Source of the DNA: a virus
DNA length: 26,231 nucleotides
IMG/VR virus record: IMGVR_UViG_3300042731_005304
Direction: 5' to 3' (one strand)
Shown: positions 19,080 through 19,343 of the stretch, piece after piece
Layout of the letters: each line of letters begins with the position of its first letter
How positions within the stretch are numbered: position 1 is the first letter of the stretch
Position numbers and translations under genes: made by a program
Notes under the pieces: model-generated
What the model was told of the DNA's origin: nothing
The model's input: only the letters and a program-made list of their open reading frames with translations
Database searches by the model: none

Positions 19080-19343
19080 TGGAGGTGGCGGGAGTCGAAC
19101 CCGCGTCCCAGAGAATTTCGACATCAGCCTTGTTTTTGAAAATGTCCCGAAATTATTCGGAATTACCAACAAGGAGGTATAAGTAGTCTTCTTTTTTAGT
19201 TATACCAAGGCTAGACTGATTCCTCAATGAAGTATAACTGAGGGCTGCTTAAGCAGCCATTAAAAACTGTTCTTCGCCGTTTAATTAAAGATAGGTTTTA
19301 AGCCAATGTCTATTCTGACTCCAGTCGAAACCGTTGCACCCCC
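19080..19343 (-). ncRNA. ssrA: tmRNA (SsrA-like), 264 nt
   Basis: The minus-strand RNA starts GGGGGUGCAACGGUUUCGAC and ends GGGACGCGGGUUCGACUCCCGCCACCUCCA. This gives a tRNA-like acceptor (GGGGGUG/CACCUCC) and a T-arm GCGGG-UUCGACU-CCCGC. An internal reading frame ...GGC GAA GAA CAG UUU UUA AUG GCU GCU UAA ends in Ala-Ala-stop, with the stop inside the loop of hairpin GGCUGC-UUAA-GCAGCC, as in canonical tmRNA tag ORFs. Confidence 0.7.

Follow-up and report, generated by a model that had tools for sequence, protein, structure and literature searches.

A 264-nt phage tmRNA with no recognisable pseudoknot 1: probably a working, naturally minimised tmRNA gene

The viral record IMGVR_UViG_3300042731_005304 (26,231 nt; the whole stretch is referred to here as the window) carries a gene for a transfer-messenger RNA (tmRNA) of only 264 nt on its minus strand, and raises the question of whether an RNA in which most of the usual pseudoknots seem to be missing can still be a working tmRNA. 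Based on the features and relatives described below, we suggest that it probably can, and that the large uncultured phage from which it comes carries a naturally minimised but working tmRNA gene. An initial annotation had placed an SsrA-like RNA at 19080-19343, and both ARAGORN and Rfam agree with it on the place. ARAGORN called a tmRNA of 264 nt at 19080-19343 (-), with the tag GEEQFLMAA followed by a stop, coded at RNA positions 66-95 (RNA position p equals 19344 minus the window coordinate, as the tmRNA lies on the minus strand); the tag had initially been given as approximately (G)EEQFLMAA. The Rfam covariance model RF00023, proposed there as a check, matched 19077-19343 (-) end to end (model positions 1-374) with 73.4 bits (E = 5e-27), against a gathering score of 47 bits. 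In addition, the minimum free energy (MFE) of the whole RNA lay below that of 200/200 dinucleotide shuffles (z = -3.7).

The RNA can be divided into the following elements, in which PK1 to PK4 denote pseudoknots 1 to 4:

RNA 1-7, 19337..19343 (-): acceptor 5' strand GGGGGUG, with G3 of the G3:U70 alanine identity pair (RF00023 alignment)
RNA 8-19, 19325..19336 (-): D-loop analogue CAACGGUUUCGA, aligned to the Rfam consensus GGaUUCGAC with high posterior probability
RNA 20-25 / 231-236, 19319..19324 and 19108-19113 (-): helix 2a, CUGGAG / CUCUGG, pairing in 6/6 homologs with six sequences
RNA 34-44 / 214-224, 19300..19310 and 19120-19130 (-): helix 2b-d, GACAUUGGCUU / AGGCUGAUGUC, 11 bp
RNA 45-65, 19279..19299 (-): linker AAAACCUAUCUUUAAUUAAAC, 21 nt, unstructured, at the usual place of PK1
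RNA 66-95, 19249..19278 (-): tag frame GGC GAA GAA CAG UUU UUA AUG GCU GCU UAA, (A)GEEQFLMAA
RNA 86-101, 19243..19258 (-): helix 5, GGCUGC-UUAA-GCAGCC, with the stop codon in the loop
RNA 105-159, 19185..19239 (-): PK2 (likely)
RNA 105-113 / 138-146: outer part of PK2 helix 6, AGUUAUACU/GGUAUAACU, 9 bp
RNA 119-122 / 134-137: inner part of PK2 helix 6, GAGG/CCUU, 4 bp
RNA 127-131 / 155-159: PK2 helix 7, AGUCU (loop) / AGACU, 5 bp
RNA 183-198, 19146..19161 (-): terminal hairpin UCCGAA-UAAU-UUCGGG, predicted in place of PK3 and PK4
RNA 240-256, 19088..19104 (-): T-arm GCGGG-UUCGACU-CCCGC (RF00023 alignment)
RNA 257-263 and the next nucleotide, 19080..19087 (-): acceptor 3' strand CACCUCC and discriminator A, then AAAAA

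The tRNA-like domain (TLD) is complete, comprising a 7-bp acceptor with G3:U70, a discriminator A, a 5-bp T-stem with a 7-nt T-loop and the D-loop analogue. The acceptor GGGGGUG/CACCUCC and the canonical T-arm described in the initial annotation can both be read in the sequence, and the 7-bp stem and discriminator A, which it had singled out for scrutiny, aligned to RF00023 at a posterior probability near 1. Likewise, GCU GCU UAA does lie within the hairpin GGCUGC-UUAA-GCAGCC. The 3' end of the tmRNA reads CACCUCC-A-AAAA, so that CCA is not encoded. We do not consider this disqualifying, because the CCA position does not always encode CCA in tmRNA genes (PMC11915505) and because CCA is encoded in 0/10 of the window's tRNA genes (12 tRNAs had initially been counted; 10 were detected, even at a permissive Rfam threshold).

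Relatives of the RNA were found through the gene downstream of it. The two flanking genes are:

16603..18906 (-): class II (B12-type) ribonucleotide reductase (RNR), the syntenic anchor downstream of the tmRNA
19345..19704 (-): 119-aa open reading frame (ORF), its stop codon finishing 1 nt short of the tmRNA 5' end

In at least 10 related viral or metagenomic contigs, with RNRs 67-79% identical, the class II RNR gene has a tmRNA upstream of it; the relatives found via RNR include IMG/VR viral contigs that measure 144 and 21 kb, together with a metagenomic scaffold of 278 kb. Other routes were less productive: no near-identical DNA to the window was found among GenBank phages, a distant search with the window tmRNA gave matches only at the universal T-arm and acceptor segment, one of two IMG/VR scans with short-form tag-region patterns found only the contig of locus L002 and the other nothing, and the upstream 119-aa ORF as a query returned no relatives. 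An exact look-up of the window's RNR protein gave no record, although homology searching showed the window to be an entire JGI metagenome contig of 26,231 bp. At this locus the RNA occurs in short and long forms (loci are designated by L-numbers):

Window, short: 264 nt, GEEQFLMAA (ARAGORN and Rfam)
L002, short: 250 nt, GEYQLAA
L115, short: 251 nt, GEELLLAA
L117, short: ~252 nt, GEELFLMAA (Rfam 33 bits, missed by ARAGORN; acceptor AGGGGCG/CGCCUCU)
L116 (L116:520-767), short: ~248 nt, GEE and a premature stop (Rfam 37.6 bits)
L118 (L118:802-1085), short: ~283 nt, AEELALAA (Rfam 33.4 bits)
L001, L013, L119/L120 and L121, long: 351-354 nt, tags AENFDADFALAA, AEEFDAEFAMAA, AEEFEAEYLMAA

At least six contigs have the short architecture, and their RNR proteins are 70-79% identical. 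Two further loci, L008 and L123, hold only tmRNA 3' parts, the contig ends having cut off the rest. The TLD and helix 2a of the window (GACUGGAGU) resemble those of the long phage forms, not those of cellular tmRNAs, and in a neighbour-joining RNR tree (without support values) the carriers of short forms group together, the carriers of long forms adjoining them. The pattern would fit a single reduction within the lineage, with L118 as an intermediate. In the ENA contig L118, at 952-3432, the called RNR start overlaps the 3' half of the tmRNA; this 826-aa model is probably ~75 codons too long, which we take as a sign that annotation pipelines overlook reduced tmRNAs.

For the comparison of structures, in which the complete short homologs number six (n=6), the helices were located in each homolog and each pair was checked by computation (helix tables). 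All 7 bp of the acceptor form in every homolog, and pair 3 is G:U in 6/6 short homologs; the T-arm has 5 bp in 7/7 homologs, in six sequence versions. Most homologs keep the D-loop GGUUUCGAC; L116 has the variant GGUAUCGAU instead, and L118 the variant AGAUUCGAC. In helix 2a, helix 2b-d, helix 5 and helix 6, pairing is kept though the sequence differs in every homolog; helix 2b-d, for instance, has 7-11 bp in 6/6 homologs, every sequence being different. Moreover, RNAalifold on a plain MAFFT alignment recovered 29 pairs, 13 of them with double-sided changes.

The region in which PK1 would be expected is short. From the 5' strand of helix 2 to the resume codon there is a gap of 17-23 nt in 6/6 short forms, the MFE of the linker is 0.0 in each, and the PK1 stem is deleted in the window's RF00023 alignment. 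The same search found an H-type PK1 in the long phage forms (in L001, for example, AGAGU/ACUCU interleaved with UGCUAA/UUAGCA), and the same method found PK1 in two Cytophagales tmRNAs (CGGGAG/CUCCUG interleaved with GGUGGUAU/AUGCCAUU). As judged by these sequence comparisons, PK1 (helices 3 and 4) is absent from the short forms. A mini-PK1 drawn by eye (G40G41/C49C50 plus UUAAA/UUUAA) was rejected, as it competes with the covarying helix 2b-d and as the linkers of the other short forms have no stable fold.

PK2, by contrast with PK1, is likely present. Its helix 6 pairs in 7/7 homologs, all with different sequences, and its helix 7 is found again, in other sequences, immediately downstream of the conserved AAAAAAGA in L115, L002, L116, L117 and L118 (Fisher p = 0.019 over seven sequences). 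Another PK2 topology drawn by eye (CCUCA/UGAGG plus GUUAUAC/GUAUAAC) was discarded, the canonical helix 6/7 form being the one common to L002, L115, L116 and L117. At the place of the terminal hairpin, six homologs have a hairpin, in five different sequences; according to these comparisons, one covarying hairpin stands in for PK3 and PK4 in most short forms. The 283-nt RNA of L118 appears to keep one extra pseudoknot, read by eye from its sequence. The suspicion voiced in the initial annotation, that 264 nt is unusually short and that some pseudoknots are perhaps gone, was thus well placed, with PK1 absent and one hairpin instead of PK3 and PK4.

The messenger part of the RNA is maintained as well. 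The 3' end of the linker is the conserved pre-resume motif UAAAC, and the resume context AAAC-G(G/C)C-GAA is invariant in all short forms. The short-form frames are 9, 9, 8, 7 and 8 codons long, differing by whole codons, and 5/6 short-form tags end hydrophobic-Ala-Ala (-LAA or -MAA), with the stop in or beside the helix 5 loop; all long-form tags have the same kind of ending. A scan of genomes with the resume signature led to full-size, 365-nt tmRNAs in a Cytophagaceae metagenome-assembled genome (MAG) and a Cytophagales MAG, with the tags GEENYALAA and GEESYAMAA, and tmRNA tags of other viral contigs end in -PMAA or -AMAA. Given the Cytophagales tag GEESYAMAA and these viral endings, the -MAA ending of the window tag is ordinary, and the tag style would point to a host in the Bacteroidota/Cytophagales.

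To place the size of the RNA, we scanned IMG/VR for the 5' TLD motif, which is carried by 82 viral loci. The one-piece tmRNAs among them measure 321-440 nt, except those of the window (264) and L002 (250), and the resume codon lies at position 80 or beyond, except in L002 (64), L036 (60) and the window (66); in the short-form clade it lies at 62-66. One of these exceptions, L036:3454-3774, is a PK1-less 321-nt tmRNA on a 101-kb viral contig, with the tag ANNTDYTGNTVLSA and an encoded CCA. Its 16-nt linker CCUUUUAAAAUUAAAC is nearly identical to the linkers of L116 and L117, indicating that the PK1-less design extends past the immediate clade, and the U-run, A-run and UUAAAC motif common to the three linkers may have a function of their own. 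At the other end of the range, L044, L071, L077, L082, L083 and L098 (viral contigs of 73-117 kb from sample 3300045988) carry tmRNAs of 415-424 nt with very long tags, for example GNLFSKFANKVKSLFTANAVALA.

The window also encodes two proteins that the initial annotation had linked to the tmRNA. One of them is:

11183-11518 (-): stand-alone GGQ (RF-1 domain) protein, 111 aa (Pfam PF00472, 6e-16; GAGGQHRNK motif)

The name of ArfB-like factor that it had been given holds for the GGQ domain and fails beyond it. Against the ArfB model NF006718 the protein scored 27.2 bits (cutoff 100) over residues 7-32 only, and against PrfH 37.8 bits (cutoff 166.65). The basic C-terminal tail of ArfB probes the empty mRNA channel, whereas the C-terminal 40 residues of the GGQ protein are net acidic. 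Its best matches in cultured phages are RF-1 domain proteins of cluster-C mycobacteriophages (~40% identity, full length); in one of these, ScottMcG, the RF-1 domain gene lies among replication genes, with no tmRNA within 12 kb on either side. The protein is a possible second ribosome-rescue or release factor, which we link to the tmRNA by inference. The other, at 8658-9278 (-) and ~10 kb from the tmRNA, was described as a ClpP-family protease. It does match Pfam CLP_protease (93.9 bits), with Ser, His and Asp in place, but NCBIfam ClpP models gave at most 72 bits (cutoffs of at least 228), whereas its best model is 'head maturation protease, ClpP-related' (109 bits, cutoff 120) and its best PHROG is likewise a head maturation protease.

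Based on these results, we can outline how a working tmRNA of this kind would operate. The tmRNA 5' end lies 0-2 nt from the upstream ORF stop codon in the window, L002, L116 and L117, and because it abuts the stop codon in this way, co-transcription with the upstream ORF followed by RNase P cleavage is suggested. The tmRNA would thus be transcribed jointly with the upstream ORF; RNase P would cut the 5' end, while the 3' end would be trimmed and receive its CCA from a CCA-adding enzyme, as for the phage's 10 tRNAs. Host alanyl-tRNA synthetase (AlaRS) would charge it with alanine via G3:U70, and host SmpB and EF-Tu would bring it to ribosomes stalled on broken mRNAs; reliance on host SmpB is assumed here since no SmpB gene was found. 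Translation would resume at GGC, append (A)GEEQFLMAA and stop at UAA, releasing the ribosome and leaving a product that presents a hydrophobic -MAA end to host proteases. A likely gain would be that ribosomes are kept free while host mRNAs are destroyed, with the phage tRNAs and the GGQ protein acting alongside. The initial annotation had suggested a role against host mRNA-cleaving toxins or abortive infection, and the present results speak neither for nor against it. A scan for sigma-70 promoters and intrinsic terminators around the gene picked up no terminator and a single promoter-like site, which lies upstream of the 119-aa ORF; this result is not above shuffle expectation. In the gap between tmRNA and RNR start, at 18968-19005 (-), a G+C-rich hairpin of 10 bp, GAAAGACCCC...GGGGUCUUUC, encloses a CCG-GCAA-CGG stem, and a U-rich stretch comes after it. 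The hairpin, which the terminator scan missed because of its long loop, could terminate the tmRNA transcript or act as a regulator of the RNR gene.

The keeping of the resume context, frame, helix 5 and helix 6 by compensatory change speaks for a messenger function. In tmRNA on the ribosome, PK2 is bound to uS3 at its KH2 domain, while helix 5 touches SmpB, uS3, uS4 and uS5 (PMC8363625); that the short forms keep helix 5 and probably PK2, the elements with these contacts, further supports a working tmRNA. Moreover, in Escherichia coli PK1 has been swapped for a hairpin or single-stranded RNA and tagging was not lost (PMC4236655). Beyond a working gene, the phage lineage may have evolved and long kept a minimal tmRNA that is fully active in trans-translation with host SmpB, consisting of the TLD, helix 2, a short U/A-rich linker, the tag frame, helix 5, PK2 and one hairpin; we put this stronger proposal forward tentatively, at slightly less than even chances. 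In a bolder version still, the phage RNA would out-compete or replace host tmRNA, so that rescue proceeds on phage terms together with the GGQ factor.

Several observations weigh against a working molecule. PK1 is nearly universal in cellular tmRNAs (PMC1168896), and one proposal has it acting with helix 2 in getting tmRNA past the intersubunit bridges (PMC8363625); its absence could impair function. Helix 7 of PK2, taken for the window alone, is at chance level (630/2000 loop shuffles match). The tmRNAs of L116, L117 and L118 fall under the RF00023 gathering score. In L116, the fourth tag codon is UAA (GGC GAA GAA UAA), followed by an intact UUU UUA AUG GCU GCU UGA, and the discriminator is C, not A; these changes could reflect recent decay, an assembly error or a dispensable degron, as in a rescue-only variant. 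The closest named cellular RNRs are those of Spirochaetales MAGs, at odds with the Bacteroidota-like tag. Finally, Pfam detected no SmpB in the window, and tblastn with an E. coli SmpB query found none in the clade loci and their 5-6 kb flanks, which cover part of each genome; the probe did give a match, as a positive control, in the unrelated locus L073. There, at L073:9356-10176 of a 16-kb IMG/VR contig, a tmRNA is immediately preceded by a SmpB homolog that shares 42% identity with the E. coli probe; L073 is either a virus with both SmpB and tmRNA or host DNA included in a prophage call.

Three other explanations can be considered, all of which we regard as less likely than a working tmRNA because they leave unexplained the compensatory upkeep of the resume site, the frame, helix 5 and helix 6. 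The reduced RNA could act mainly as a decoy that soaks up host SmpB (perhaps also AlaRS or EF-Tu) and shuts down host trans-translation, as has been suggested for mycobacteriophage DS6A, whose tmRNA remnant is TLD-only; in E. coli, tmRNA is strongly inhibited by a molecule made of the TLD alone, perhaps via SmpB titration (PMC4131195, PMC11915505). That the TLD is the best-conserved part of the window RNA, that PK1, PK3 and PK4 are gone, that the L116 tag is shortened to GEE and that no phage SmpB was found would all suit such an inhibitor. A pure decoy, however, would need the TLD alone, yet the resume context, the -AA tag with its stop, helix 5 and helix 6 are kept across diverged phages through compensatory changes and whole-codon indels, and we consider the decoy unlikely. 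Somewhat more doubtful again is ribosome rescue without targeted proteolysis, in which the tag would be no host degradation signal or would guide products to the phage ClpP-family protease. The tag lacks a recognisable adaptor-binding part, L116 would append just A-GEE, and a ClpP-family serine protease with its Ser, His and Asp is encoded nearby; on the other hand, the hydrophobic-Ala-Ala end recurs in all but one of the short and in all long forms and fits Cytophagales tags, the protease resembles head-maturation proteases most, and no ClpX-like partner was found in the window.

The remaining explanation, a non-working, decaying relic of a captured host tmRNA or of integration at host ssrA, seems to us the most improbable of the three. 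The window RNA is indeed far shorter than its long counterparts at this locus, the Rfam scores of some relatives are under the threshold, L116 has a nonsense codon and a non-A discriminator, and tmRNA 3' fragments are common in prophages (PMC9004378). The gene is complete at both ends, however, and no integrase is encoded in the window; the short architecture occurs in at least six contigs whose RNRs have diverged to 70-79% identity, with paired changes keeping every helix, and the clustering of its carriers in the RNR tree (again neighbour-joining, without support values) fits one old, persisting reduction.

Returning to a working minimal tmRNA as the preferred explanation, we compared the RNA with known systems. 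With canonical tmRNAs (E. coli; Cytophagales L126 and L132) it shares the TLD with G3:U70, the T-arm, helix 2, a UAAAC-type pre-resume motif, a tag end of hydrophobic-Ala-Ala, the stop in helix 5 and, probably, a PK2 with an A-rich crossing strand, and with the Cytophagales tmRNAs also the resume context AAACGGCGAAGAA and the GEE...(L/M)AA tag style. The canonical molecules, however, measure ~350-365 nt and have PK1, PK3 and PK4, whereas the 264-nt window RNA has a linker and one hairpin and does not encode CCA. In a survey of cellular tmRNAs ~350 nt was typical and 250 nt the shortest; plastids and some cyanobacteria do without PK3 and PK4, and PK1 has two exceptions only, Oenococcus oeni and the Pavlova plastid, in which helix 4 is lost and helix 3 kept (PMC1168896). 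The reduced plastid and cyanobacterial tmRNAs thus resemble the window RNA in the loss of PK3 and PK4 and in a length of ~250 nt (PMC1168896), but they keep PK1, while the window RNA has neither helix 3 nor helix 4. Alike in its 5' part is an engineered E. coli tmRNA in which helix 2 leads through a simple or unstructured linker to the resume codon, and for which efficient tagging in vivo is reported (PMC4236655); this was a laboratory construct with PK2-PK4 intact, whereas the window gene is natural and has also lost PK3 and PK4. The mini-tmRNA of mycobacteriophage DS6A is likewise phage-borne and strongly reduced (PMC4131195, PMC11915505), but it is TLD-only and has no tag frame, while in the window RNA the resume context, tag and helix 5 are preserved, as probably is PK2.

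The initial annotation had called tmRNA genes uncommon in phages, naming a few tRNA-rich jumbo mycobacteriophages. Their spread is far wider: tmRNA was found in 402/18,146 phage genomes, ~2% (PMC9004378), many Streptomyces and Stenotrophomonas phages have annotated tmRNAs, and huge phages carry tmRNA and SmpB (PMC7162821). Known cases comprise Bixzunavirus (cluster C) mycobacteriophages, Bacillus phage G, Streptomyces and Stenotrophomonas phages, the two-piece tmRNAs of pelagiphages and Melnitz, and huge phages. These share with the window a complete gene in a large, tRNA-rich, lytic-type genome (PMC4131195, PMC9004378, PMC7162821), and the cluster-C mycobacteriophages, long known for their tmRNA (PMC4131195), also have a homolog of the window's GGQ protein. 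Their tmRNAs differ in having no sequence relationship to the window RNA beyond the universal TLD, and some huge phages differ in carrying SmpB too (PMC7162821), none having been found for the window. Within the searchable literature, we came across no functional work on a phage tmRNA.

The surroundings of the gene agree with a phage genome of this type. All long ORFs and all RNA genes of the window lie on the minus strand, and the gene set is, by its predicted functions, typical of a large lytic phage. The 119-aa upstream ORF has no Pfam, PHROG or NCBIfam match. Other genes encode an NT5C nucleotidase, a DHH phosphoesterase, a DNA/RNA non-specific endonuclease, an HNH endonuclease, an ATP-dependent ligase, a Thg1-like enzyme (PHROG 4717, 9.5e-86), a small PolX-like nucleotidyltransferase, a NifS-like desulfurase and a radical SAM protein, in addition to the ClpP-family protease. 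The non-specific endonuclease, the 10 tRNAs, the Thg1-like enzyme and the GGQ protein share a co-oriented block with the tmRNA. Within 21576-25871 (-) the Thg1-like 3'-5' polymerase, the 183-aa PolX-like nucleotidyltransferase and the ATP-dependent ligase are clustered, and in the relative L121 (1-922) an RtcB ligase occupies the same neighbourhood; together with the tRNAs, tmRNA and GGQ protein, these enzymes look like a repair and maintenance set for the translation apparatus.

The RNR genes of several relatives are interrupted, by a group I intron (75.8 bits) in L004 (7459-7671) and L012 (4459-4671) and by an intein with a homing endonuclease in L115 (5001-8489) and other relatives. Two adjacent thymidylate-synthase-like paralogs with weak scores lie at 3615-4433 and 4442-5335 (-), and may, with the NT5C nucleotidase and DHH phosphoesterase, point to a modified pyrimidine in the phage DNA. 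An 893-aa protein encoded at 694-3375 (-) combines a major vault protein shoulder domain (2.5e-27) with a vault repeat and SPFH/Band 7, which is unusual for a phage; a Band_7 protein is also found near RNR in the relative L122.

A tmRNA in a phage is thus already known; what appears to be new, judged against the cellular survey (PMC1168896) and the sampled loci, is a natural PK1-less, single-pseudoknot form. In a graded series, the locus passes from four pseudoknots (~352 nt) by way of a 283-nt intermediate to probably one (248-264 nt), and shows what is retained under size pressure: the TLD, helix 2, the resume motif, the tag, helix 5 and probably PK2. These parts match the ribosome contacts seen by cryo-electron microscopy, and the replaceability of PK1 known from the laboratory would be extended to nature. 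As reduced forms were missed by ARAGORN or fell under the Rfam threshold in several relatives, counts of phage tmRNAs are likely underestimates. If the minimal form is indeed fully active, PK1, PK3 and PK4 would be dispensable, and the ribosome-contacting helix 5 and PK2 alone would be needed. The clade gives a compact, minimal tmRNA that is open to testing.

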